Shown piece by piece: positions 2,995-41,796 of a DNA stretch of 41,796 nucleotides (the stretch's first letter is position 1; every line of letters begins with the position of its first letter). The DNA lies in assembly GCA_013239625.1 (NCBI GenBank), contig MU053792.1, forward strand, positions 780,941 through 822,736. The letters run 5' to 3'. Under the pieces are notes generated by a model. The model had not been told where the DNA came from, did no database searches, and worked only from the letters and a program-made list of their open reading frames with translations. The position numbers and the translations under genes were made by a program. Source of the stretch: Lama guanicoe. Its lineage: Eukaryota.

Positions 2995-3440
2995 TTCCCA
3001 TGTTAACATAAAGGAATTCTTTCACTTTGGGCAGCATAACTTTATTTTCTTAACAGACGCCTTGAGATGTAGGTGCTCGGACTGGGAGGAACCACCATCC
3101 TCTGACTCTTCTGAGGCAGAGCCACTGCTCAAAGGCGTCTCTAGGTTTTCGAATTGGTGATCACCACATCTGACATCCTACCCAAACCTTTCCTTTTCAG
3201 TTTGTCCACATTTAGATTTGATCAGTTTTCTGGTCTAATAACAAGTCTGTCCCCAAGTGTCTACTTATCTGTTAGTGTGTGCCACCCACTCCAGTGGTTA
3301 TTTTTAAAATCCAGTATTTTTTTCCCAAACGTATCTACACAACTTAACTCAGTGTTTTCTTTTTCAAACACACATAAATACCTCACTGTCGTAATTAGGC
3401 ATTGCCTAGTTCCCATGTTAACATAAAGGAATTCTTTCAC
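2995..3440. repeat. Perfect 31-bp direct repeat pair
   Basis: TTCCCATGTTAACATAAAGGAATTCTTTCAC at 2995-3025 and 3410-3440. Confidence 0.9.
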
Positions 3441-4544
3441 ACTTATTTGATAAGCACTTACGGATGAACCAGGCTTCACATAAACGTTGTGAATGATTGG
3501 CCATGAAGAATTAGGTTAAATGTAATTTACTGGAACATTTAGAGACTCTTTTCCAGTCGTCTCATTCTCCGGACTGGAACACTGAGACCCAGGCAGACCC
3601 TAACTTGTCCTTTCCGCTGCCTGCTGCCATCTTCTCGTGTGATGCGAAGGACCATGCCGTGCCCGGACGTCACGCCACAGTTCGAATCCCGTCTCTCTCA
3701 CCTATTATCACTTTTGTCCTTTCAGGAAATTTATATAACCTTTATTAACAAGCTACTATTTCCTCTTTGAAATAGTGATGATAACGGCCTAGTTGGATTT
3801 TGAAGTAAATCAAATAAGAATGTGAATATCGAGTAACTAAGACCGAGTGGGGAACTCCATGTTCCTTACTTTCCTCTCCTTCTCCCTTAGAAGAACTCCT
3901 CACAGCTACAAAGTGTTAGAACCCAAATCACATCTCCGGGCTTCTGATTCTTACATTCTTTCCAAATGATTCTGCTCCTACGCCAAGAAGATTAGGGAAA
4001 AGTGCTTTGGTTCTTATTTAAAAGGTGATTACAAAGAAATTAAGAGTAACCAACTGGTTCCTTCATCGAGCTTAGGAAAGAAGGACCAAAGTGAGCCTGA
4101 AGTGTGAGACGGGCCACTTTTTATAAGGGAGGAAGGAAAAAGAATCACAAAACCACAAATGATCTATTCATAGTCCGATAATGGGTTAACAAGAGATCTT
4201 CGGTAAGGAGGGTTCCATCTGTCATACAGCTTGTTTCGTATACAGCTTGAAATATTTTCAGGAATTAAACGGTTGTAATAAAACTCATAGTAATGATAGT
4301 GAGTCGTCAAAGTGCCAAAAACAGTTCCGTAAAATAAAGAAAAATTCTGGAAGCAGCTGAAGTCAGAAACATTCCTGACTTATACTGCATAAACCACTCT
4401 AAGGAGATAAGCGATCAGTATTTCCCTGCTGGGGAAAAGCGGTGTGGAGATCTTATTACTTAGCTCTAATTCTAAACAGGATCTAGGAAAGTCCCAGACC
4501 AATAGGATGGCAGGTATATATGCTCTGGAGTCGGATAATAAGAC

Positions 4545-4689: not shown

Positions 4690-5085
4690 GAAAGTGCTGA
4701 GTGCCTAGTATGTGCCTGGCCCTGTGCTCAAAGGGCTGAGGACACATGAACAATAGAAGATACACGTTTACAGACCATATGAAGGAGACAAATAGGGGGG
4801 CACAAGAGCGAGTAAGGGGCGAGGGGTCGGGGATCTGCTTTAGGTAAGTGGTCTTAGAAAACTTCTTTTTCAGGTTGCATTTCAACTGAGACCTGAAGGA
4901 AAAGAGAGAACCAGCCCTGCAAAAAAAACAGACAACAACAACAACAAAAGAGGGCAAAACATAAAATAAGATGAAACAGCAGGTGCAAATGTGCTGACCT
5001 GAAAAAGAACTCAGTGTGCTGCAAAGTGAGCATGAGGACAAGGGGTGAGATCTGAGGTTAGAGAAAGAAAAAGCAAGTTCTTTCA
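4690..5085 (-). mobile_element. L2 3' fragment
   Basis: TGAGTGCCTAGTATGTGCCTGGCCCTGTGCT...TTTCAACTGAGACCTGAAGGA. Confidence 0.65.
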
Positions 5086-6399
5086 ACCCTTGTTAAGAAG
5101 GTCACGGTAAAAACTGTAAAATACAAATTTTTTTAATCTTTATATTTTGTAAAAGTATATGTGACGTTAATATTCCTACTGATTAAAATTATAGTGACAG
5201 AATAATTTTAAAAATTAAGTCAAATAAGGGTTACTTCAACACGAGTAGCGACGCTGGCGTTTGGATTTGGCCAAAGGACCCGTAAAGTCGTTTTTTCTTA
5301 AGTGAAAAGGTGAAAGTTCTTGCCTTGAGGGACAATCTTATGCTGAGCTTGCTAAGATAGATTCGTCCTCACCGTATGTCTGTGAAACGGTGACAGAGAG
5401 GAATTCATGCTAGACTTGGCTGTTGTACATCAGACTGCAAAAGCTGCAGCCACAGTATGTGATAAAAGCTTAAGATGGCAGAGGCATTAAATCTGTGTAA
5501 TACACTTGGAGAGAGACCATACTCACAGCTTTCTTAGTCTATTAAAAGTCGTCACTTACTGTGCCTAACTGACGATCTTATCGTAGGTACGTACAAGATA
5601 ACAGCCCAGTAAGTATAAGTACAAACAGGCTTCAGAACTGTACACTCTCTTGCATCCACCGGGGGACTTGGAAAAAAAACATTTTTAAAAAATGAGAGTT
5701 TCATTGTATGAGCGGAATGAGTCACTGAAGATTTTTAAATATAGGATGACTAGATCTGATTTATTCCGATTTATAGTTCAAAGAAATCATGTGGCTGCTG
5801 CACAGAAAATGAATTTTAGTGTTTGATACATATTTAGTGTCCAATAAATGTTAGTTAATTAATACATTATTATTACTTATTTAGCAACACCTCTGCCGAT
5901 CATGATTGCTGACATTACTCTAGTGTACAAGCACAGAATTAGTGACAGTGTTATGTGTGTGATGACCATTTAGAGAAATTAAAATGATATGATCTCTACC
6001 ATTAAGTAGGATACATTATTTTGTAGCAAATATTGCTTTCTGTGTAGCCTTGAGCAAATTAATCTCTCTGAAATTCAGTGTTTTGATTTGTAAAATGGTA
6101 CAAATAATACAGATAGTTGGGATTCAAATGAGAAAACATAAAATGCCTGATAGGAAAAGAGTAGGCAAATAACAAATGCTACTCATTATTATCATTTTAA
6201 GTGTATACACAAAGAGGAAAACAAAACTGGATACATTTTCAGCCTCAGGTCCTTAAGAACATATGCAATATATTCAGAAATCAATGCATAGCAATGTGTG
6301 TGACCATCTACAGTCATATATTCCATCCAGCTCTTCCTCTTGTTACTCCTGCTGTGGGGAACCTGCCAGTTCATGGAGAGTGTCTACCAAGGATGGGGT

Positions 6400-25342: not shown

Positions 25343-25659
25343 ATTATTAACCTTATAAATTAATCTGAGATATTTATTGGAAGATATACATATATATGTA
25401 AAAGATAAAATGGAAATAATTTCACAAAGTTGACTTCAAGCAATAATGCAGTTTTATGTATATGATTAATAACTTTTCTATTTGAATTCATGAGAAGCTG
25501 AGGAAATAAGCATTGATGAACTTCAGATGAATTCCTTTATGACAAAAGACATTACTTCCCATGAAATTATTTCACTATTAAGAAAAAGACTGTGAACAGT
25601 ATTAAGAGGCTGGAGACATTATAACTGATTGTGTTTTTGTCTTACAGACGTGTTTTATC

Positions 25660-26801
25660 TTTTTAAATTTTTGAAGTGAAGTATCATTGATTTACAATAT
25701 TCTGTTCATTTCAGGTGTACAGCATGTGATTCACCTATTTTTTCTGATTATATTTCAATATAGGTTACAAGATGTTGACTAGAATTCTCTGTGCTATACA
25801 GTAAATCCTTGTTGCTTATCTATTTTGTGTGTAGTAGTTTATATCTTTGAATCCCATACTCCTAATTTGTCCCTCCTTTCCTCTCTCTTCAGTAGCTGTA
25901 AGTTTCATTTCTAAGTCTGTGAGTCTGTTTTAGTTTTATATATAGATTTGTTATATTATTTTTTAGATTCCAAACATGAGTGCTATCATATGGTATTTGT
26001 CTTTCTCTGTCTGATTCACTTCACTAAGCAGAATATTCCTAGATGCATCCATGTTGATGCAAATGACAATAATTTATTCTTTTTTATGTCTGACTAGTAG
26101 TCCATTGTATACATGTAACACCTTTGCTTAAGCCAGTCACTTGTTGGACATGTGGGCTGTCTCCACGTCTTGGCTATTGTAATAGTGCTGCTGTGAACAT
26201 TGGGGTGCATGTATCTCTTCAGGTTAGAGTTCTCATCTTTTCTGGGTACATACCCAAGAGTGGATTGCTGGATCGTATGTAGCTCTATTTTTAGTTTTTT
26301 GAGGAATCTTCATACTGTTTTCCACACTGGTGGCACCAATTTCCATTCCCACCAACAATGTAAGAGGGTTCTCTTTTCTCCACACCCTAACCAGCATTTA
26401 ATATTTGTAAACTTTTTAATGATGGCCATTCTGACCAGTGTAAGGTGATACCTTATTGTGGTTTTGACTTGCAAATAATTAGCAATATGTGCATTTCTCT
26501 AATAATTAGCAATTATGTGCATGTTTTCATGTGCCTGTTGGCCATCTGGATGTCTTCTTTGGAGAAATGTCTATTTAGGTATTCTGCCCATTTTTCAATT
26601 GAGTTTTTTTTGTGTGTGATATTGAGTTGTATGAACAATTTGTATAATTTTTTTTTGATATTAACCCCTTGTCAGTTGCATCATTTGCAAATATTTTCTC
26701 CTATTCCATAGGTTGTCTTATTTCATTTTGTTGATGGTTTCTTTTGCTGTGCAAAAGCTTTTAAGTTAGATTAGGTCCCATTTTGTTTTGGGGGGTTTTT
26801 T

Positions 26802-26841
<40 letters not shown>

Positions 26842-28546
26842 GAGATTGTTTTTAGGAAAAATTAGAGACTGATTTAAGAAAATATTGCTATGATTTATGT
26901 CACAGAATGTTTTGCCTATGTTCCCTTCTAGGAGTTTCATGGTTTCATGTCTTATACATAGACATTAAACCATTTTGAGATTATTTTTGTACACGGAGTG
27001 AGGTAGTGTTCTGATTTCATTAATTTCCATGTAGCTGTCCAGCCTTCCCAATATGCTTATTGAAATGACTATCTTTTCTCTATTGTATATTCTTGCCTCC
27101 TTCGTCATAAATTAATTGATCACAGGTGTGTAGGTTTATTTCTGGGCTCTCTGTTCTGTTCCATTGATCTATATGTCGTTTTTCTGCAATACCACACAGT
27201 TTTGATTACTGTAGTACATAGCTTGAGGCCTGGAAGGGTTATACCTCCAGCTTTGTTCTTTTTCCTCTGGGTTGATTTGGCAATTCCAGGTCTTCTGTGG
27301 TTCCAAATAAAATTTAGGACTATTTGGTCTAGTTCTGTGGAAAAGGTTATCGGTATTTGGATAGGAGTCACTTTAAATCTGTAGATTGCTTTGGTAGTGT
27401 GACCATTTTAACAGTACCAATTCTTTTCATCCACGAGCACAGGCTATCTTTCCATTTCTTTAAATAATCTTCAAATCCCTTTATCAATATTTCATAGTTT
27501 TCAGCATATAGATCTTTCACCTCCTTGGTAAAGTTTATGCTACGTATTATGCCTTGGTATTTCCTTTCTTCTTGACTTTGATTTCTGTTTGTTCTTCTTT
27601 CTCTAATTAATTTAGGTGGTGGTTTAGGTTGTTTATTTGGGGTTTTGTTTGTTTGTTTGTTTCTTGTGGAAGGCCTGTATCACTATGAACTTCCCTCTTT
27701 GAACTACTTTTGCTGCATCCCATAGATTTCATAAAGTTGTGTTTTTATTTTCATTTTTCTAGAGGTATTTTCGTATTTCTTCTTTGATTTCACGTTTGGT
27801 GCATTTGTTTTTTAGTAGCATGTTGTTTAGTCTCCATGTGTTTCTTCTTGTCCTATCTTTTTTCTTTTGTGGTTGATTCTAATTTCATGCTGCTGTGGTC
27901 AGAAAAGATATTTGAAATAACTTCTATGCTCTTAAATTTGTTGAAGCATGTTTTGCCACCTAGTATGTGGTTTATCCTAGGGAACATTCCATTTGTGCTC
28001 AAAAAGAATGTGTACTCTGGTGTCTTGTGATGTAGTGTCCTGTAGAAATCAATTGAGCCCAATTGGCCTATTGTGTCACTTAGGACCTCTGTTGCCTTTT
28101 ATTGATTTTTCTGTCTGGATCATCTGTCCAGTGATGTCAGCAGGGTGTTAAAGCCTCGTAGTATTATTGTATGATTGTCCATTACTTCCTTTATTAGTTA
28201 GTATTTGCTTTACATATTTCAGTGTAGCTATATTGGGTGCATACATATTACTGACTGTAATAATCCTTTTCTTGCATTGATTGCTTTGTCATTATGTTTT
28301 GTTTTGTTTTGTTTTGTTTTGTTTTGTTTTGTTTTGTTTGTGTTTCCTTATGGCCTTTGTTTTACAGTCTCATTTGTCTGATATGAGCCAAAATCTTTGC
28401 TATCTTGTCATTTCCATTTGCATAAAATATCATTTTCCATTCCCTCACTTTTAGTCTGTGGGTGTCTTTTGCCTTGAAGTGAATTTCTTGTATGCAACAT
28501 ATTGTAGGTTCTTGTTTTTTTTAATCCATCTGCCACTGTATTCTTT
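25660..28546 (-). mobile_element. Host LINE-1, 3' part (3'UTR plus decayed ORF2 with internal deletion)
   Basis: T-rich tail end and L1 3'UTR motifs. ORF2 peptides [22 protein letters not shown]...[11 protein letters not shown] (27120-27371) and IDFYRTLH...YTFFLS.NG.FPRINHILG (endonuclease domain, 27853-28062). Confidence 0.92.
28296..28340. repeat. (GTTTT)n microsatellite in the host L1
   Basis: About 8 pentamer units. Confidence 0.9.
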
Positions 28547-31500
28547 ATCTTTTTTTTTCTGTTTCATAAAGAACATTTTATTTTATTTTATTTTATTTTA
28601 CTTTATTGAACTATAATCAATGTACAATGTTGTGTTAATTTCTTGTTTACAAAATAGTGATTCATTTTTATTGATAGATATAGATATATAGATATGTATT
28701 CCATTTCATATTCTTTTTCATTACAGGTTACTGCAAAATATCTAATGTAGTTTCCTGTGTTACACAGTAGGACCTTGTTGTTTATCCATTTTATGTATAG
28801 TAGGTAATGTCTGCGAAACCCAAACTCCCAGTTTATCCTGCTCAACTCCTGTCCCCCTGGTAATTATAATGTTACTTTCTATGTCTGTGAGTCTGTCTCT
28901 ATTTTGTAAATAAAGTAATTTGTGTCCTTTTTGTAGGTTCCACATGTTAAGTGATATCCTATGGTATTTTTCTTTCTTTTTCTGGCTTACTTCACTTAAT
29001 ATAATGATTCCCAAGTTCACAAATGTTGTTGCAAATGACATTCTTTTTTAGCCTTTTTTAGCCTTTTTGTGGCTGAGTAGTATTCCTACGCATATGTATA
29101 CCACAACTTCTTTATCCAGTCATCTGTCATGGACGTTTAGATTGTTTCCATGTCTTGGGTATTGTAGATTGTGCTGCTATGAACATTGGGTGCAGGCGTC
29201 TTTTCGAATTAAAGTTTCCTCCAGATAAATGCCTAGGCATGGTATTGCTAGATCAAATTTTCCATATTTTCCAATTTTTAAGAATCTCCATACCGCTTTC
29301 TCTAATGGCTGCACCAAAATATGATCCCACTAACATTGTAGGAAGGTTCCGCTCTACAACCTCACTAGCATTTATCTTTTGTGAATTTTTTAATGATGGC
29401 TGTTCCGACTGATGTGGAGTGATACCTCATTATAGTTTTGATTGCATTTCTCTGATAATTAATGATATTGAGCATTTTTTTCATGTGCCTATTTGGGCAT
29501 TTGTATGTCTTCAATGAAGAAATGTTTGTTTAGTTCTTCTGCCCATTTTTGGATTGGGTTGTTTGGGTTTTTTTGGTTATTGAGTTGTATGAGCTGTTTG
29601 TACATTCTAGTAATTAACCCCTTGTCGGTTGCTTTGTTTGCAAGTACTTTCTCCCATTCCATAGGCGGTCTTTTCATTTTGTTTATGGTTTCCTTTGCTG
29701 TACAAAAGCTTAAAAGTTTAATTAGGTCACACTTGTTTATTTTTGCTTTTATTTCTGTTGTCTTGGTAGACTGTTCTAGGAGAACATCACTACGATTTGT
29801 ATCAGAGAATGTTTTGTCTATGTTCCCTTCTAGGAGGCTTATGGTGTCTTCTCTTATGCTTAAGTCTTTAAGTCATTTTGAGTTTATTTTTGGGTGTGGT
29901 GTGAGGGAGTACTCTAATTTCATTGATTTACATGTTGCTGACCAGCTTTCCCAGCACCACTTGTTGAAGAGACTGTCTTTTCTCCATTGTATATTCTTAT
30001 TTGTTGGAGATTAATTGACTGTGGATTTGTGGGCTTGTTTCTGGGCTCTCCATTCTGTTCCTTTGATCCATAAGTCTGTTTTTGTGCCAATAGCAGGCTG
30101 TTTTTATTACTATAGCTCTGTAGTATTGTCTGAAGTCTGAGGGGTTGTTTATTGCTCCAGCTTTGTTCTTTTTCTTCAGTATTGCTTTTCCAGTTTGGAG
30201 TCTTTTGTAATTCCACATAAATTTTAAGATTAGTCTAGTTCTGTGGAAAATGTCTTGGGTAATTTGATATAAATAGCATTAAATCTGTAGATTGCTTTGG
30301 GTAGTTTAGCCATTTTAACAGTATTAATTCTTCCAATCCAAAAGCATAGCATGTTGTTCCATTTCTTTAAATCATCTTCAGTTTCCTTAATCAAGATTTG
30401 GTGGTTCTCTGTGTTTAAGTCTTTCACTTCTTTGGTCAGGTTTATTCCTAATTATTTTATTTTTTAATGCAATTTTAAAAGAGATTGTTTCTTTACTTTC
30501 CTTTCCTGATATTTCATTACTACTGTAAATATATGCAACAAATTTCTCTCTGTTAATCTTCTATCCTGCTACCTTGCTGAATTTTGTTTATCAGTTCTAG
30601 TTTTTATGTGGAATCTTTAGGGCTTCCTATATATAGTATCGTGTCATCTGAATACAGGGAAATTTTTACCTTTTCTCTTCCAGTTTGGATGCCATTTATT
30701 TCTTGTCTGATTGTATGGCTAGGACTTCTAATACTATGTTGAATAGAGTTGTTGAGAGTGAGCATCCTTGTCTTGTTCCAGATTTTAATGGGAAGGATTT
30801 CAAGCTTTCAACTTTTCACCACTGAGTATTATGTTGGCTGTGGGTTTGTCATGAATAGCTTTTATTATATTGAGATATGTTCCCTCTATACCCACCTTGG
30901 TACGAGTTTTATAACAAATGGATATTGAATTTTATCAGATGATTTTTCTGCATCTATTGAAGCTATCATGAGATTTTTGTCCTTTCTCTTGTTGATGTGG
31001 TGTATCACATTGATTGATTTGCATATGTTGAACCTCCTGGTGTCCTTGGGATGAATCCAACTTAATTGTAGTGTATGATCTTTTTTATATGTTGTTTGAT
31101 TCTGTTTGCTAATATTTTGTTGAGAATGATTGCATCTATATTATGTTATATATTATAATAGATATTATATGTTATTATATCTAATTATTGGCCTGTAATT
31201 TTCTATTTTGGTACTCTGTTTGTCTGGTTTGGATATCAGGGTGATGATGGCCTCATAAAATGACTGTGGGAGTATTCCTTCCTCTTCAGTCTTTTGGAGG
31301 AGTTTGTAAAAGATTGGTGTAAATTCTTCTATGATTGGTAGAATTCCCCAGTGAAGTCATATGGTCCTGAACTTTTGTTTGCATGGAGTTTTATTATTAT
31401 CAATTCTATTTCACTTCCAGTGATTGGTTTGTTCAAATTATCTATATCTATTTCTCTTGACTCAGCTTTAGTGGGCTGAATATTTCTAGGCATTTCTCTA

Positions 31501-32982
31501 TTTCTTCTAGGTTGTCCGATTTGCCATATAATTATTTATAGTATTCTCTTATGTTTTGGTTTTTTTTTTTTGGTAGTATTGATTGTAATTTCTCCTCTTT
31601 CATTTCTTGTTTTGCTTTTTTGAGTCATCTCTCTTTTTCCTTGGTGAACCTGGCCAGTGGTTTCTCAATTTTGTTTATTCTTTAAAAAACCAGCTCTTGG
31701 TTTGATTGATTTTTTCTATTATTTTAATCTCCATCTTATTTATTCCCCCCCCCCCAATTTTTATTATTTCTTGCCTTCTACTGACTTTGGTTTTGTTTGT
31801 TCTTCATTTTCTAACTTTTTTTTTAGGTGGTAGGCTAGGTTGTTTACTTGAGATCTTTCTTGTCTTTTGAGGAAGGCCTGTATCACTGTGTAGTTTCCTC
31901 TTAGGACTGCTTTTGCTGCGTCCCGTTGGTTGTATAGTTGTGTTTTCATTGTCATTTGTCTCAAAATATTTTTTAATTTCTTCTTTGATTTCATCATCGA
32001 CACTTTGGTTTTCAGTAGCATGTCATATAGTCTCTATGCAATTTTTTTCTTTTTTTATTTCTCTTTCTGTGGTTGATGTCTAGTTTCATGGCATTGTGGT
32101 CAGAAAAAAATACTTGAAATTATTTCTATCCTCTTAAATTTGTTGAGGCTTGTTTTCTGTCTGAGTATGTAGTGTATCCTAAAGAATGTTCCATGTGCAC
32201 TTGAGAAGAATGTATATTCTTGTTTTGTTTTGTTTTTACTGTAATGTTCTGAAAATATCAACCAAGTCTAACTATTGTACTGTGTCATTTAGCATTTCCA
32301 TTGCCTCACTGCTTTTCTATCTGGAAGATCTCTCCTATGATGTTAGTGTAGTGTTAAAGTCTCCTACTATTATTGTTTTCCCATCAGTTTCCTCCTTTCT
32401 GTCTGGTAGTAATTGTTTTATATATTTAGGTATTCCTATATTGGCTGTATATATGTTAACATGTGTAAAATCCTATTGTATTGCTCTTTTGATTATATAG
32501 TGTCCTTTTTTATCTTTCTTTATAGATATCTTCATTTTAACTCTATTTTGTATGATGTGAATATTGCTACCCTCACTTTCTTGTCATTTCCATTTACATG
32601 AAGCATCTTTTTCCATTCTCTCTCTATCAATCTATGTGTGTCCTTTACCCCAAAATGGATTTTTGCAGACAGCACATTGTAGGTGCTTGTTTTATTATCC
32701 ACTCTGCCACTCTATGTCTTTTGATTGGAGCATTTATTCCACTGACATTTACAGTAACTATTGATAGTTGTGTGTTTATTATTTTAAACCTTGTTTTCCA
32801 GTTGGTTTTATATTTCTTCTTTGTTCCTTTTTTCTTCTTTCTGTTTTTCCTTCTGTGGCTTGATAATTTTTTTTGTATTAGCTTGATTTCTTTTCTTTTT
32901 GTTTTTTGTGTCTATTATATATTTTTGCTTACTCTGTATTTCAAGTATGTTAAGTCATTACTATATCTGTTTGCTTTAGACT

Positions 32983-33588
32983 TGTTAGGCAGTTAGATAG
33001 AAAAGAGCACCAGGCAGGGGGAGAGAAAGGGGAAAGGAGAAACCCAGAAAGTAAGAGTATGCCTGCACTCAGGATATGGGGCTCCAAAAGCTTTCTTTAA
33101 ATCAGGGCCAGCAAAGAAGCCAGCTAGGATCCAACGCTGCAGCCGTGCAATAGAGAGAAGGACCTGTCTTAACGTGACCCAATGCTCATTATAATGTAAT
33201 TAACATTACGGTTTGAGCCCCCTCCCGTGGGTTTCTCTGTGTGCTTCATGGGTAAGAACCTGCCCCAAAAGGGATGGGCGTGCCTGAGCACAAGGAACCT
33301 GAGCTGTCAGTCAGCCTGAGCATTCAAAGAACCTGAGCTATGGATCAATCAATCATGAAAACGCCCCTAAGTCAGGACATAAAAACAGGAAAACCAAAGG
33401 AGCAGCACCATTTTTCCTCCCTTGGATTGAGCTGCTCCCATTTCTTGGGAGTGTGCTATACTTTACTACCTTTTTACTTTACTAATAAAATCTTGTTTAT
33501 ATCACACTTTCTGTCCTTCATTACAAATTCTTTTTTTTTCGGGTGACTAAGAACCGAGGTAATTCTTACTTTCCTTTTCCTGGTAACG
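32983..33588 (+). mobile_element. ERV1-class solo LTR in the L1 inter-ORF spacer
   Basis: TGTTA...TAACG termini (CA mutated to CG). 4-bp TSD GACT at 32979-32982 and 33589-33592. CATAAAAA TATA-like box near 33378 and AATAAA near 33485. Confidence 0.88.
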
Positions 33589-35254
33589 GACTGGTCATCA
33601 GATAGGCTCAAACACATCCTAAAAAGAATGGAGAAAAAAATCCACATTTCCTTGCTCCCCTCTTGCACATTTTATGATTTTGATGTCCTCTATTACATGT
33701 TTATATTTATTCTTTTGCTGTTCAGTGTAGTTACCACATTTCCAATTGTGATTTTCTCTTTTCCATAAATTCCTGCTTCTTTTCTATTTAGAGAAGAACT
33801 TTCAATATTTCTTTTGGGATAAGTTTAATATTACTGTACTCTTTTAGTTTTTGCTTTTCCGAGAAAACCTTTCTCTCTCCTTCTATTCTAAATGATAGTC
33901 TTGTGAGTAGAGTATACTAATTTGCAGGGTTTTCTCTTTCTGGACTTTGAATATATCTTGCCACTCCCTTCTGGCCAGCAACACTTCTCTAGAGAAATCA
34001 GCTGAGAGGCTTACGGGGGTTCCCTTATAACTAACTCTTTGTTTTTCTCTTGATGTCTTTAGAATCTTCTTTTTAACTTTCACCACTTCAATTATAATAC
34101 GTCTAAATGTGGTCTGTTTGGGTTCATCTTGTGCTTCCTGTACTTTGGTATCTGTTTCCTTCTTTAGGTTTGGGGAGTTTGCAGTCATAATTACTTCAGA
34201 TACATTTTCCATGCCCTTTTCCCTTTCTTCTCCTTCTGGGACCCCTATTATGCATGGATTGGCACACTTTATATTGTCCCATAGTTCCCTTATATTGCTT
34301 TCATTTTTTTTTAATTTGTTTGTCTGCCTTCTGTTCTGATTGAGTGGTTTACAATAGTCTCTCTTCTAAATCACTTGTTTGTTCTTCTGCATTGGCCTAT
34401 TCATTGTCTTTCACTCAGCTTTTATCTCAGAAATTGATTTTTCTGATTTTAATCGGCCCCTCTCTTTAGTTTCCAGTTCCTTTTTACGGTCATCTGCATT
34501 TCTATCCATAGCCTCTCTTAATTCCTTCAGTGCTTTGACTATCTCCTTTTTGAACTCAAGTTCTGGTATACTGTGAAGTCTATATCATTATTTGCAGCAA
34601 AGGTGGTTGCTATGATGATGTCCCTCCCTTCCCTTTGTAAGAAAGTAAGTTAGCAATGGAGACTTATGGCCAAGCCACATCCTGTGGGGAGCATTGCACC
34701 CCTCCATTGTGTGCACCAACAGCAGAGTTTCCTATGGCGGCCCCAGGCTGTTTTGCATACACTCCCAGCTTCAGCCTGTACCACACTCCATCTCCTTCAG
34801 GCCCGCTCTGTGCAGTCAATTCCAGTCCTCTCCCTGGGTCTGTCCTCTGAAGCCTGAGCTCCAGCACACAGTCCTTGCACACACCACCCTGCTTGTCTCA
34901 GGCTAGGGACCACATGGCTCCCCTGAGCCTGTTTCTCTCCATTCTGTCTGCCTCAAAGCAGCCCCTGTGCTCGCCTCTGGGTCTCTGAAGTACCCCTTCC
35001 GTCCCCAGCACTGATCTCTCTGCTGAAGAGGGGGCTGCCAAAGATAAAGATGCTTTTCCTCTTTTACTGCTTCCTTTCCAGCAGGGCCTGATTTCCTTTT
35101 TCTTTTCCTTTTTTTTTCTCCTACCCAGATTCATGATTATTTTCCTTGTAGTTCCACTTATACAAGATGTGCTGTAAGTATTCTGGGTGAATTGTTCCAC
35201 ATGCAATCTACGTTTGCTGTGTTTGTGGGAGGGCGTAAGCTGTGTCCTTCTCTT

Positions 35255-35264
35255 CCGCCATCTT
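35255..35264 (-). promoter_or_regulatory. YY1 site at L1 5' terminus
   Basis: AAGATGGCGG on the minus strand, a few nt inside the element end. Confidence 0.7.
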
Positions 35265-35269
35265 GAAGC

Positions 35270-38131
35270 CCATGTGCTCTATGTCTTTTGATCGGAGCTT
35301 TCAGTCAATTGACATTTAAAGTAATTATTGATAGGTATGTAATTAGTGCCATTTTAATCCTTGCCTTCCAGTTGTTTTGTAATTCTTTGCTCATTTTTTC
35401 TTTATGTTTTTCCTTTTGTGGTTTGATAACCTTCTTTTGTAGTGTGCCTGAGTTTCTTTCCTTTTGGTTTTTGGGTATCTATTGTATGGTTTTGATTTTT
35501 GGTTACCATGGAGTTCAAGCATTTTCACCCATACTTGCTTTAAATTGATAGTCACTCAAGGTCAGACATATTCTAAGAGATTCACATTTTTTATACCTCC
35601 CTCCCTCACATATTTTGATTTTGATGTTTTATTTTATATTTTCTTGCTTATGCTTTTACTGTTTATTATAGTTATAATTGCTTTTGTATATTTTTAATGG
35701 TTTTAATCTATGTACTTGCTTATTAAGTGAGCTTCAATCCTTTTATATATTTGCCTTTCCCATTGTGATTTTCTCTTTCCTATAGGTTCTTGCTTATGAA
35801 AAGAGAAGACCCTTTATTTAGAGAAGACCCTTTAATACTACTTTTAGAGCAGGTGTTGTTTTCCTAAGTTCTTTTAGCATCTGCTTGTCTAAGAACATCT
35901 TTATATTTCCTATTCTAGCTGGTAATCTTGCTTGGTAGAGTAGTCTACTTCGCAGAAGTTTCTCTTTTGTAATTTTTAATATTTCATACCACCCTTTAGC
36001 CTGCAAAGTTTCTGCACAGAAATCAACCAATAGCTCTATGGGGGTTACCTTGTAAGTCTTTGCTTTTCCCTTGCTACCATTGGAATCCTTTTTAACTTTT
36101 GCCATTTTAATTATGATATGTCTTGGTGTGAGTCTGTTTGGGTTCATTTCATTCTGGACCCTCTGGGCTTCTTGTACCAGAATATCTATTTCTTTCTTTA
36201 GGTTTTGGAAGTTTTCAGCCATCATTTTTTCAGATACTTTTTCAATTTCCTTCTCTCTCTCTCTCTCTTCTTCTGGAATCCCTGTTATGTTTTTTCATTA
36301 ATGACACAAGGAGGGCTGGCTACAATTCATCAGGATTACTGAACACAAAGCTGCAAAAGTTGGTACCTTTTATATTAACTGATAGATCTCATTTGTTGCT
36401 TTTACTTTCCCTCATTTCTCTTTCTATCTGCTGTTCTCATTGGATGATTTCTATTATTTCATCTTCCTAAACCTTTATTCATTCTTCTCCTTCATTTAAT
36501 CACTGTCATTGCTTTTAGATTGGTTTTCATCGTGGTAATTGAATTATCTACTGTTGATTGGCTTACCTTTATGGTTTCTAGTTTCTTGTTACAAGTAATC
36601 TGTGTTTCTATCAGTAATTTTCTTAATTCACTTAGGATTTTTATTACCACTTTTTTTGAACTCTGGGTCTGGTAGATTGGTGAGCTCCATTTTATTATTT
36701 ATTCTTTCTGTGGATTTCTCATTATTTTAATCCTCTGCCTTTTCAATTTACTTAACTTTCTCTGGCTCTATGAATTTAGGAGAAGTCCTGAAGGGGTGCT
36801 TCTCTGTGGGTGTGCCCCGTGTAGACTCTGTGTCCAGCATCTTTGTTAAGAGGGCTTGTTTTGACATGGAGCCTACTACATCGTTTCTCAGGGTGTGCTG
36901 GCTGTTATCCCCTTAACAGGGTGTGTGGTTGGTGTTTGGGGATTTGAAGCCTGTGCAGGATGCGAGACTGGACTTCCTCTCTGCTCCATGGCTATCCCTG
37001 TTCCGTCAGATGTGCAGTTTACTTCCTGGTGGTTGGAGTAGAACTTCTGAGGGGTGGATCCTCTCAGGTTCAGTTGCCCTTGAGTTTGTGTCCTGCCCCA
37101 AAGGAGGTGATTGATGAAGCAAGTGAGGCTGTACGGTCACAGATGACCCACATGCCTTCTGTGCAGGTGCATGCAGTTCTGCTCTGGAGCACTCAAAGTC
37201 ACGTCCCTTCCTGCGCAGTGCTCGTCTGAGATCCAGCACAAGGCTGTGGTATGGAGTAGGCTGGGGCAGGGTGTTGGGCTGTTGTGGCTGCAGGAATTGA
37301 GGTGGTTGCACTGCCTGCTAAGATTTGGGCTGCCTCTGGGCCAATTTGGTCCCAGGACTTGTCTGCCCCAAATCTAGTGCTAAATGTTGGTGTGGACTAG
37401 GACTAGGTGGAGCTGGGGTGCTCTTTCTGGGTGGGGAACTGCTTGTACTCCTGAGCGTCTGATAGTGACCACTGCCACAGTCCCAGACCATGCCATAGGC
37501 CCGCAGGGCTGACCTCTCCCAGGGCCTGTCTGCCCGAGATTCAGTGCTTAGCCCCATCCATGCTCTTGTGGCTCACCCCACATGCTGACAGTGGCCACTG
37601 CAGCTCCACTCAGATCACACCCCAGGCTCCTCAGTCTGTCTCTGTGTAGCTAGACGGAGTTCTGCCCAGATCTCACGCCAGGCTGTGGTGTGGAGTGAGC
37701 AGAGCTGGGGTGTTTGTCCCTTTGAATTGGGACATGCAGGAAGGTGGTAGCTGCCAGTGCAAGGCTCTCTCTGTCTCAAGAGTAGAGTCTAGCTTCATCA
37801 GCCCTTCTGTCTATGCCAGCAGATTTCCCAGCAGGCAAAGGGGGCTTATCCCTTCCTCGCACGACCCTGGGACTGGGGTGCTCAGGCTGTGGCTTGGCCT
37901 TCTCCCTCCCCAGGTCCGCCTGTGCAGACCTTCTCTTCTTACAAAGCCTTCCAAGTGGTACAGGTCCCAATCTGATGCCTTTTTCTTCCATCCTACTTGG
38001 TCATGTGTAGAACTCTATTGCAGGCTGGTTTTATAGGGTTTCTTCTGCCAGATTCTAGTGAGTTTCTGTGAGAATTATTGCACATCTAGATGTATTTTTA
38101 ATGTGTTTGTAGGGAGAGGTGATCCCCTTCC
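35270..38131 (-). mobile_element. Host LINE-1, 5' part (ORF2 start, spacer, ORF1, ~1.3 kb 5'UTR)
   Basis: ORF1 peptide MAENFQNLKKEIDILVQEAQRVQNEMNPNRLTPRHIIIKMAKV...LKGLL (35818-36225). GC-richer 5'UTR at about 36800-38130, whose end resembles 35175-35245. The terminal YY1-containing bases are missing. Confidence 0.88.
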
Positions 38132-38273
38132 TTGTTCTTGTTTTTTGTTTTTTGTTTTTTTAATAAAGGCCTTTTAATAAAGGCCTTGTGGGAGTCCAGT
38201 TTCCGGAGCCACCTCCGTGCCAGAGTTCCGCGTGTAAGGCAGTTTGGACATCCCTGCACCGCATTCTGCTCAG

Positions 38274-38818
38274 GAGAAGCCGACCCCTCCCGCGTCGCCC
38301 CGGCCCCACAATGCCAGCCCGACAGTGCGCCTCCTGCAACAAGGCGCGCGCCGCCCTCCGCCGCCCGCGCTCCGGCCAGGCGCTGTGCGGCACCTGCTTC
38401 TGCGCCGCCTTCGAGGCCGAGGTGCTGCACACAGTGGTCGCGGGCCGCCTGCTGCCGCCCGGCGCCGTGGTGGCCGTGGGCGCCTCGGGCGGCAAGGACT
38501 CCACGGTACTGGCGCACGTGCCGCGCGAGCTGGCCCCGCGCCTGGGCATCTCGCTGCGCCTCGTGGCCGTGGACGAGGGCATCGGCGGCTACCGGGACGC
38601 GGCGCTGGCGGCCGTGCGGCGCCAGGCGGCGCGCTGGGAGCTCCCGCTCACCGTCGTGGCCTACGCAGACCTCTTCGGGGGCTGGACGATGGACGCCGTG
38701 GCCCGCAGCACAGCCGGCTCCGGCCGCAGCCGCTCCTGCTGCACCTTCTGCGGGGTGCTGCGGCGCCGGGCGCTGGAAGAAGGGGCGCGCCTCGTGGGAG
38801 CCACGCACGTCGTGACTG
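38274..38818 (+). other. CTU1: CTU1 first coding exon equivalent (508 coding nt plus short leader), CpG-island-like
   Basis: Preceded by pyrimidine-rich CATTCTGCTCAG (AG at 38272-38273) and followed by the GTGAGC donor. Very high GC and CpG density compared with the AT-rich window. Confidence 0.75.
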
Positions 38819-39260
38819 GTGAGCGCAGGCGCCGTAGCAGCAGGAGCGTATGGGAAGGAACGGGCGCATGCGCGGGCGAGGGGCCAGCACTTCAAGGGAG
38901 CTGGGCGCATGCCCAATACGTGGTAAAGGAGACCAGGTATGTCTCAACCGGAGAGAATCAGTAAGGAGAAGGGAATATGCACGTCCACTGAAGGTTCATG
39001 GGCATAGTATCTGCGTATCCCTAGGATGGGCATGGCAAGCTTTTGAGTCACTGCCATCATCTTGGTACACACATGCCAGCAGGGCGCTGGCCAGCCGCGC
39101 GCTCTGCCAGGCCTGCGCCCTCCTGGACGGCCTGAACCGCGGCCGGCCCCGCCTGGCCATCGGCAAGGGCCGCCGGGGGCTGGACGAGGACGGGCCGCCG
39201 CGGGAGGCGGAGCCGGAGGCGTCCGGACCCCCGGCCTCCGAGCCGGTCCCCGCCTTCTAG
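38311..39260 (+). pseudogene. CTU1: CTU1 (cytoplasmic tRNA 2-thiolation protein 1, Ncs6/ATPBD3) copy with a retained intron fragment and an internal deletion
   Basis: ATG at 38311 gives [38 protein letters not shown]...[17 protein letters not shown]...[28 protein letters not shown]. This has two N-terminal CxxC motifs, the PP-loop SGGKDS and CCTFC. Similarity stops at G|GTGAGC (38818|38819). It resumes in another frame at 39084 with [35 protein letters not shown]...VPAF* (stop 39258-39260), the CTU1 C-terminus. The HNADD... middle part is absent. HVPRE replaces the usual HVLR (L to P). Gene identity is near-certain; pseudogene status is inferred. Confidence 0.88.
38819..39082 (+). other. Retained 5' part of a CTU1 intron
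   Basis: Starts with canonical donor GTGAGC exactly where protein similarity ends. The read-through frame stops at TAA 38962-38964. Contains GCGCATGCGC (NRF1-type palindrome) near 38864 and a second strong donor CAG|GTATGT at 38936|38937. Confidence 0.7.
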
Positions 39261-39408
39261 AGACGCCGGTTCTCCGCGGGGATCCGACGCCTGGGAGCGC
39301 GGGGCCGCCTGCAGATGACGCTGTGGATAAACCTGAGTTACTTTGGCCTCGGGCTTCGGTGCGAGGTGGGGAGGGGGACGGCAACTGCTACCTGTGACCC
39401 TGCAGAAA

Positions 39409-39480
39409 CTGGGGCGCTGGACTCCTGGGGCGGGGGAGGCGCCTGGGGGCCGGGACTCCTGAGTCTCAGAGAGGAGAGGA
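39409..39480 (+). repeat. MSR1-like minisatellite units
   Basis: Two degenerate GGACTCCTG(G/A)G...GAGG...CTGGGGGC units resembling the MSR1 repeat typical of the KLK/CTU1 region of human 19q13. Confidence 0.45.
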
Positions 39481-39800
39481 CTGAACAACTTCCCACTCCT
39501 GAGCGAGTGGGAGTTAGGGGGCTGCTTGCCTGCACGGCTGTGGGGTTCTGGGCATGCTCGGATAGTCCTAACCCTTCTTGAGCGCCTACTGTGTGCCTGA
39601 TGCTTCATGTTTGCCAGCAGTGAGATAATCAAACCACTTAACTTGGACACACGTCAGTTACAGTAATCATGATGCTTCTCTGTGAGCACCCCGCATACTG
39701 CAGGCGCTGGTTAGTCCTTAACTCCCCCGCCCCACCACCTGTATCTCTGTTTGATGGTTCGGGAGCAGCAGGGGTGGGCTTCCCAGACCTCCGATTCTGG

Positions 39801-40462
39801 AGGTCAAAGACTTAACCTCTCTGATCTTCATTTCCTCCTCCTTCCTGATATATTTTATTTAAAAGGTACTGAGTGGCTGTGTTACCAGGGGACATAGTGC
39901 CCTCACGTTTTCTCCTACCTAACTCCAACTATCTTCCAGTTTTGTTTCTTATGTTACTATTTTTACATCATCAACATTTATTACATTAATTTTGCTTTTC
40001 TGTAGACGTAATTCCTGGCTGCTAAGTCTCAGCTGTTTAATAGAATCGGTGCTCATCAGCAGTCACTTTACTGTGCCTTTCTATTCCAAAACACTTTATT
40101 TTAATTCATATGTTGATTAGTTGAAAGGTCAAAGACTTAACCTCTCTGATCTTCATTTCCTCCTCCTTCCTGATATATTTTATTTAAAAGGTACTGAGTG
40201 GCTCTGTGTTACCAAAGACAGGGGACATAGTGCCGTCACATTTTCTCCTACCTAACTCCAACTATGTTCCAGAAGTTGCTATCTTTATGCTTTATGCAAA
40301 TACTACACACATACACACATGCATGCTCCATTCTCCATATCTCAGTCCATCTTTTTGTAATATCTAAATTAATTTTAATAGAATCGGTGCTCATCAGCAA
40401 TCACTTTACTGTGCCTTTCTATTCCAAAACACTTTATTTTAATTCATATGTTGATTAGTTGA
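39801..40462. repeat. Interleaved short duplications (segments A, B, C)
   Basis: A: 39801-39939 matches 40126-40272. B: 40036-40124 matches 40374-40462. C: 40267-40371 matches 40616-40720 and 41005-41109. Confidence 0.93.
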
Positions 40463-40614
40463 TTGTCAATACAGCCAACGTAAAGGATAGTTAAGATAAA
40501 GTGTGTTGATTGTCCTGGCTTTGGAAATACAGGATATTATGACATGCCAGTAGGAACAGCTAACAGTATATCATAGTTAGGAAAAATGAGAGGAGGGACA
40601 GAAGAGCAGATACT

Positions 40615-41390
40615 CTTCCAGAAGTTGCTATCTTTATGCTTTATGCATATACTACACACATACACACATGCATGCTCCATTCTCCATATCTCAGTCCATC
40701 TTTTTGTAGTATCTAAATTATCCAAGATAATAATTATTAACATCATAAATTAATTTGTACAAATATAATGGAAGCTCAGTGGAAAAGTATTTAAGGACAG
40801 ATGAGGATTTGGAGCTCAAATTATCCCTCACGTGCTGCTCATACACGTGGCCCTGTGCATTACAACGTTCTGACTATTTCATGTTAAAATCAGCACAGAC
40901 ATTATATGTGAGCACAGCACCACTAAACACAAAATGACAGGGTAGCAGGCCGCTGCACTGTGACCCCACTAATGAGGTGTATTTGGGGAGAGCTATGCTA
41001 GTACTTCCAGAAGTTGCTATCTTTATGCTTTATGCATATACTACACACATACACACATGCATGCTCCATTCTCCATATCTCAGTCCATCTTTTTGTAGTA
41101 TCTAAATTATCCAAGATAATAATTATTAACATCATAAATTAATTTGTACAAATATAATGGAAGCTCAGTGGAAAAGTATTTAAGGACAGATGAGGATTTG
41201 GAGCTCAAATTATCCCTCACATGCTGCTCTTACACGTGGCCCTGTGCATTACAACGGTCTGACTATTTCATGTTAAAATCAGCACAGACATTATGTGAGC
41301 ACAGCACCACTAAACACAAAATGACAGCGTAGCAGGCCACTGCACTGTGACCCCACTAATGAGGTGTATTTGGGGAGAGCTATGCTAGTA
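40615..41390. repeat. Tandem duplication, 2 x ~388 bp
   Basis: 40615-41003 versus 41004-41390, with about 5 substitutions and one 2-bp indel. The duplicated ORFs MYKYNGSSVEK at 40755 and 41144 reflect this. Confidence 0.95.
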
Positions 41391-41796
41391 TTCTCTGTGC
41401 GAGGCCTGCTAGCATTTTTAAGGATAAGAAGACAGGAAAGGTTTTAAGTGAATCAAAGATGTTATGGAAAATATGGTTTCTACCTAGAAACATGCGGTGA
41501 AATGTAGAGTTATTTGAAGAAATTTTCAAATGTAAATATTCCTATCTTGCTACATAAAGACATTTTTTAGCTATTGTGCTGTGTGACATGAGCAGGTAAG
41601 TTTAGTTCCTTGTGGGTTCAAGCAGGCATCCAGGCCTTGAGCATCCCTGCAACAAGCTGACATACTGACAAAGACAAAATCTGAGTGTTTAAATGTCAGC
41701 CTGCTGCAAATGGTCTTCAATACATTTTAACACCACCCTAGGAAATGCAGTTAGTTATATAGTATATTTGATTCAAGGGTTTCTGATTTATATATA

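Follow-up and report, generated by a model that had tools for sequence, protein, structure and literature searches.

What kind of CTU1 copy lies between positions 38179 and 39800 of this DNA, and by what route did it come to stand in L1-rich surroundings? The window, by which we mean the whole 41,796 nt stretch of Lama guanicoe contig MU053792.1 that was analysed, had been described in a first-pass annotation as holding a part of the CTU1 locus that had been moved there unspliced. In our view, the interpretation most consistent with the data, to which we give a probability of roughly 0.6 with all three of its possible routes of integration counted, is that the copy is a young and dead semi-processed retrocopy of CTU1, derived from a partly spliced pre-mRNA and integrated in an atypical way.

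The left part of the copy bears most directly on its origin. About 95 nt from the 3′ part of the noncoding CTU1 exon 1 (38179–38273, plus strand) abut exon 2 (38274–38818, plus strand; ATG at 38311) exactly at 38273/38274, and intron 1 is absent. The same exon 1 reading occurs in spliced models from whale, goat, buffalo, horse and dingo. It also aligns with positions 737–818 of L043, a pig-like metagenome contig that carries the CTU1 promoter region; the last ten bases of the exon in that contig equal window 38264–38273 and are followed by a donor (GTGAGT) and by more than 850 nt without counterpart in the window. The score of this alignment was reached by none of 1000 shuffles under strict and by one of 1000 under lenient conditions. 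As the DNA alignment drifts about 30 nt beyond the donor, in GC-rich sequence, it does not by itself fix the junction, and the exact position of the exon boundary therefore rests on protein models. Two horse isoforms, one spliced (P0220) and one of an intron-end type (P0024), have precisely 13 residues before the methionine in common, and their counterpart in the window begins at 38272, spanning the exon junction. N-terminal extensions are present in 28 of 315 proteins; sorted by motifs that we defined, ten are of the exon 1 type seen in the window, 11 of the intron-end type and seven of neither. The alpaca model P0124 is of the intron-end type, which indicates that the alpaca or camelid parent locus retains intron 1. 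The excision of intron 1 exactly at its splice sites argues that the copy arose via RNA. The CAG that the first-pass annotation had taken for an acceptor-like site upstream of the first coding exon (38271–38273) is thus the 3′ end of exon 1 at a completed splice junction, and an RNA intermediate, not the transfer of unspliced locus DNA, is indicated.

Exon 2 differs from that of alpaca by P4R and L71P. The PP-loop Pfam domain PF01171 is matched at residues 54–119, and the CTU1 sequences present in the copy comprise the N-terminal zinc finger, the SGGKDS PP-loop, a CxxC motif and the C-terminal zinc ribbon. At 38819 a GTGAGC donor leads into approximately 256 nt of the 5′ part of intron 2, which have been kept (38819–39074, plus strand). 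When this intron is read through, all 39 of 39 residues are identical to alpaca, and the orthologous intron read-through translations track the window up to about 39073; the frame itself ends after 217 amino acids at a stop inside the intron (38962–38964). An alternative 5′ splice site, GTATGT, lies 118 nt into intron 2 at 38937, and both alpaca RefSeq models use this donor, which places their last exon out of frame.

The sequence then jumps into the last exon. Seven nucleotides at the internal junction (39075–39081, plus strand), either filler or camelid-specific intron sequence, match neither the deduced alpaca exon 3 codons nor two orthologous intron translations. The 6-mer at 39075–39080 does recur 15 nt downstream, but a recurrence of this kind is seen at 38 of 631 exon positions, so we make no claim of templated filler. 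The end of exon 3 (39082–39260, plus strand), which resumes at the second base of codon 291 and lies 263 nt from the donor at 38819, supplies the 58 final codons with the zinc ribbon (PF16503) and the stop TAG at 39258–39260; its three differences from alpaca are all synonymous and, few as they are, weakly hint at a difference between species. Residues 171–291 of cattle CTU1 (P0166), that is 121 codons, have no counterpart in the window. The first coding exon, its GTGAGC donor, the intron remnant of about 260 nt, the last 58 codons and the loss of the catalytic middle had all been recognized in the first-pass annotation, and the coordinates given here bear it out. The parent codons at the exon 3 breakpoint, deduced from two reading frames, provide neither the AG of a sense acceptor nor the AC of an antisense GT donor, so canonical splicing does not account for the jump. 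It could stem from a switch of template by the reverse transcriptase, from end joining that deleted sequence later on, or from a misjoin in the assembly. Searches for proteins that span the junction were negative (none of 17 matches covers more than 43% of that ORF, none of 21 candidates scored and exact look-ups found nothing), such searches being weak negatives where the DNA is noncoding.

Beyond the stop codon the copy continues on the plus strand from 39261 to about 39800. As stated in the first-pass annotation, this side carries no plus-strand poly(A): between 39261 and the end of the window that strand lacks AATAAA and ATTAAA as well as any run of six A. The GATAAA at 39326, also noted previously, occupies the position of AATAAA in other mammals (VDK in the window against VNK in three read-through models, from horse, langur and rabbit, that were chosen for that motif). 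Two antisense ORFs extend the homology to about 39601 and 39627, and the copy thus reaches at least 300 nt beyond the conserved position of the poly(A) signal. Composition, the drop in CpG and the point at which the first flank repeat begins lead us to infer a right end at 39800. A patchwork of short local duplications of 1.6 kb adjoins this end (39801–41390, not assigned to a strand). It runs A X B A′ C B′ Y C′ D C″ D′, with pieces 94–99% alike, and includes a 389 bp tandem pair at 98%. Six bases are shared at one of its switch points and 0–2 bases are unassigned at the others; with C counted once, the substitutions amount to five transitions, three of them at CpG, and six transversions. Template switching may have produced the patchwork, or it may be an artefact of assembly. 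A search of Rfam with 38440–41796 returned no matches.

At its left end the copy meets an old L1. The 38 kb upstream are AT-rich with decayed minus-strand L1s, and 11 stop-free frames of at least 120 amino acids occur in 1–38100, of which six were compared with Pfam (two matched L1 ORF1 and four matched nothing). The decayed ORF1 of the L1 immediately to the left lies at 35824–36294 on the minus strand (PF02994 and PF17490), and the probable 5′ end of that element (38058–38140, minus strand), which directly adjoins the CTU1 copy, can be aligned to the terminal part of another nested element (about 35174–35255); we take the motif there to be an L1 5′ end. Nested minus-strand L1 fragments extend over approximately 25600–38140, with two ORF1 remnants (33889–34365 and 35824–36294) and a run of 45 T at 26796–26840. 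A GC-richer segment inside L1 at about 32990–33590, with AATAAA near its right end, is presumably an LTR-like insertion, and SINE-like repeats in the upstream 38 kb look camelid to us. The ratio of observed to expected CpG is about 0.8 at 3400–4000 and 5000–5600, which is unusual beside the rest of the AT-rich upstream DNA.

Between the L1 and the copy there is a T-rich tract (38135–38160, no strand assigned), one of seven such tracts in the window, followed by a perfect 14 bp tandem duplication over the left junction (38158–38185, likewise without strand) that contains AATAAA twice on the plus strand and ATTAAA twice on the minus strand. The junction, a T run followed by AA, looks like an L1 endonuclease site; read on the minus strand, it presents ATTAAA 11 nt ahead of an A-rich run. 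The tract is either an older target site or the A tail of a minus-strand insertion, as discussed below. A target-site duplication was sought between 38095–38185 and 39300–41796: no 12-mer with at most one mismatch and no 14–18-mer with at most two is common to both, and exact and mismatch repeat searches yielded only T-rich 8–10-mers. The exon 1 stretch at 38179–38273, the T-rich tract, the 14 bp duplication and the patchwork at 39801–41390 had all been overlooked in the first-pass annotation.

The closest named proteins to the copy are those of alpaca. Its two RefSeq models XP_072824695.1 and XP_072824696.1, labelled 'uncharacterized', contain exon 2, the 39 intron residues and the entire last exon in a shifted frame, and carry P and L at residues 4 and 71, against R and P in the window. 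At the alpaca CTU1 locus the last exon is complete, CTU1 is uninterrupted and the intron starts as in the window, which upholds the earlier claim that the present copy is displaced, nonfunctional and distinct from a classic processed pseudogene. The refutation proposed with that claim supposes this to be the only CTU1 locus and the deletion to be a misjoin. Applied to the entire copy it is very unlikely; a misjoin inside the copy is possible. Horses, toothed whales, bear and goat are among the several mammals in which 'CTU1' and 'CTU1-like' are annotated as two copies, so the exact donor locus of the window copy is not fixed. One goat model (P0167) has Ig-like exons fused to CTU1, and the gene sits beside KLK and SIGLEC genes as described in the available text of PMC4689925. 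In a metagenome scan, L043 was the only mammal-like locus among 80, and camelid parent DNA was absent. In L043 itself, at 1675–2022, CTU1 intron 1 gives way to exon 2 around codon 56 and the ATG is lost; either a pig paralogue carries a deletion here, or the contig, whose coverage is low, contains a misjoin. A sequencing-run search with 37900–40120 found part of the stretch in 23 of 24 rows and half or more of it in eight (best 0.81), all eight of DNA type, from four organism codes and three studies; about 0.25 of the query words come from the flanks and about 0.70 are CTU1-derived, and the shares therefore speak for the existence of the pieces and not for their being joined, so we do not use them as support.

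The copy has changed little. Exon 2 and the read-through differ from alpaca in two of 209 residues, where exon 2 offers 362 amino-acid-changing sites, and none of the 98 possible residue-changing CpG transitions is seen; over a CpG-rich block of about 1.3 kb the observed/expected CpG ratio is 0.8–1.0. Methylated CpG mutates at a rate that we used in reasoning about age. The few changes and the intact CpGs suggest a young age, a lack of methylation or the two together.

How would such a copy have formed? The template would have been a CTU1 pre-mRNA from which intron 1 was already out and the last intron was still in. Reverse transcription, for which L1 ORF2p is the presumed enzyme, would have placed it in the T-rich site where the old L1 ends. 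The remainder of intron 2 and the greater part of exon 3 would have gone not by splicing but in a jump between templates or through end joining at some later time. A nascent, unpolyadenylated RNA would fit as template, since the last intron is retained and the poly(A) signal is read through. It is conceivable, and we advance it tentatively, that the copy was integrated as a patch over a break, with switches of template, a route that would jointly account for the tail-less 3′ end, the 14 bp duplication and the right-hand patchwork; the L1-endonuclease-like left junction does not favour such an endonuclease-independent route. In its most specific form, which we regard as somewhat unlikely, a single repair event in the camelid germline would have closed a chromosome break with a CTU1 pre-mRNA that was nascent and never polyadenylated, with its first intron spliced, its last intron unspliced and its poly(A) site read through, synthesis switching template repeatedly and so yielding the 14 bp duplication, the internal jump with its filler and the 1.6 kb patchwork. 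If true, the locus would preserve in fixed form an RNA-templated repair of a break, coupled to complex template switching, that also planted an undecayed CpG island. A normal insertion whose 3′ end was lost later is a doubtful route. Tails were found in 96% and duplications in 70% of 23 human polymorphic processed pseudogenes, as far as the available text of PMC12016303 reports, so a genuinely tail-less copy is unusual; the intron retention, the internal deletion and both ends of the copy are known from one assembly.

The remaining route within our preferred reading is a twin-primed, 5′-inverted insertion in minus orientation, with the T-rich tract as its poly(A) tail, some 17–24 nt beside the tract as the noninverted cDNA and the 1.6 kb as the inverted cDNA. 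The ATTAAA 11 nt before the A-rich run on the minus strand fits this, inverted somatic pseudogenes may skip many exons between their two parts (PMC3996531, in the part available) and three of the 23 human cases are inverted (PMC12016303, likewise). We nevertheless think it rather unlikely: the search for a target-site duplication (38095–38185 against 39300–41796) was negative, the noninverted part of germline L1 insertions has a median of 571 bp according to the accessible part of PMC12016303, comparable T-rich tracts occur seven times in the window and the supposed 3′ piece is a repeat of the 5′ end of the copy itself and thus suggestive of slippage. An antisense transcript, copied or carried along as an orphan transduction with the deletion as an antisense intron, would explain why the left end, read on the minus strand, has the same A-rich run and ATTAAA. 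A sense exon 1/exon 2 junction is impossible in antisense RNA, however, and the exon 3 breakpoint has no minus-strand GT donor, so we rejected this origin as next to impossible, refuted by the sense splice junction.

A different kind of explanation, and the main rival, is that an ordinary, fully processed CTU1 pseudogene was misassembled with its near-identical parent, which would have lent the start of intron 2 and the downstream DNA; on this view the odd middle, the absent tail and the duplications on the right would be artefactual. We judge this unlikely but worth weighing. The 263 nt of intron stand in for 363 nt missing from a very GC-rich exon, a similar span; both amino-acid changes fall near the left end, whereas alpaca and the window do not differ in the intron read-through; no more than about 2 kb separate the patchwork from the window end, and its substitutions are five transitions to six transversions; and L043 has a similar jump within CTU1. 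On the other hand, misassembly requires two gap-free chimeric joins without long overlap in a window that contains no N, and three of the five transitions among the duplicated pieces are at CpG, as with real mutations. A duplication at the DNA level of an unspliced CTU1 piece, with later deletions, would be consistent with the presence of an intron piece and downstream DNA, the absence of tail and duplication and the two annotated copies in several mammals. It is highly improbable, as intron 1 is gone exactly from donor to acceptor, and the intron 1 and promoter of L043 found just short, chance-level matches in the surroundings of the copy (best scores 28 and 20). What probability remains goes to combinations beyond these readings.

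Returning to the preferred reading of a semi-processed retrocopy, the precise removal of an intron at its splice sites (38273/38274) and the keeping of leftover intron in the assembled sequence (38819–39074, matching alpaca and other mammalian intron read-throughs) are two defining traits of that kind of pseudogene. Such pseudogenes also have a separate intact parent in their own genome; for this copy the parent may be a locus like that of alpaca, whose models show a complete last exon. A classic processed pseudogene lacks most or all introns and has a 3′ poly(A) tail as well as a duplicated target site 5–20 nt long; here one intron is absent and the other partly kept, these presumably being the only two that CTU1 has, and neither tail nor duplication is found. 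The latter absence is what characterizes endonuclease-independent insertions (NCLI and class 2 TSIP), although the left T-rich tract is ambiguous in this respect. Insertions of that type also lie at sites that diverge from TTTT/A, and the left junction here reads as a T run followed by AA. A functional thiolase needs the whole catalytic domain in a single frame; PF01171 spans residues 54–237 in cattle, and since residues 171–291 are absent and the domain is incomplete, the copy, as judged from its sequence, cannot encode an active thiolase. It shares zinc-finger, PP-loop, CxxC and zinc-ribbon sequences with the CTU1/Ncs6 tRNA U34 thiolases (alpaca, cattle P0166 and the archaeal 6scy and 5mko), but unlike them lacks residues 171–291, has a read-through that stops after 217 amino acids and carries proline in place of L71.

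Semi-processed copies described in the available parts of the literature include that of TMF1 in CYBB and mouse preproinsulin I (PMC4151081) and ovine RPSAP8 and RPSAP9, the kind being called 'very rarely reported' (PMC2850357). Like these, the CTU1 copy appears RNA-derived, with the upstream intron spliced out and downstream intron sequence kept; unlike them, it resumes in the last exon via a non-splice jump and has no tail or duplication. Tail-less and duplication-less insertions are documented, in the text available, as NCLI (PMC1920257), as class 2 templated sequence insertions (PMC5110952) and in PMC4859970, and they resemble the copy in lacking both features, in having extra nucleotides at junctions and in the possible use of spliced cDNA as template. 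As far as those texts go, they differ in being defined against a reconstructed empty site, whereas the CTU1 copy is known from its filled site alone, and NCLI inserts are L1 sequence, in contrast to this copy with its endonuclease-site-like left junction. With 5′-inverted processed pseudogenes, as portrayed in the available text of PMC3996531 and PMC12016303, it has in common a tail-like tract opposite to the gene body, but not an identifiable noninverted mRNA piece or a target-site duplication.

Among the records listed in literature searches on CTU1 pseudogenes and camelid retrocopies, none dealt with this locus. Taken on its sequence features, the RNA-derived and nonfunctional copy appears to be a further member of a known but seldom reported kind of pseudogene, and a protein function is unlikely. 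It brings a CpG-rich block into L1-rich DNA, and retrotransposed CpG islands can affect flanking methylation according to the accessible part of PMC4509998. Being near-identical to its parent, the copy may mislead camelid annotation and read mapping. If reads bear out the junctions together with an empty site without duplication, it would be a clean natural case of the capture of nascent pre-mRNA at a DNA break.
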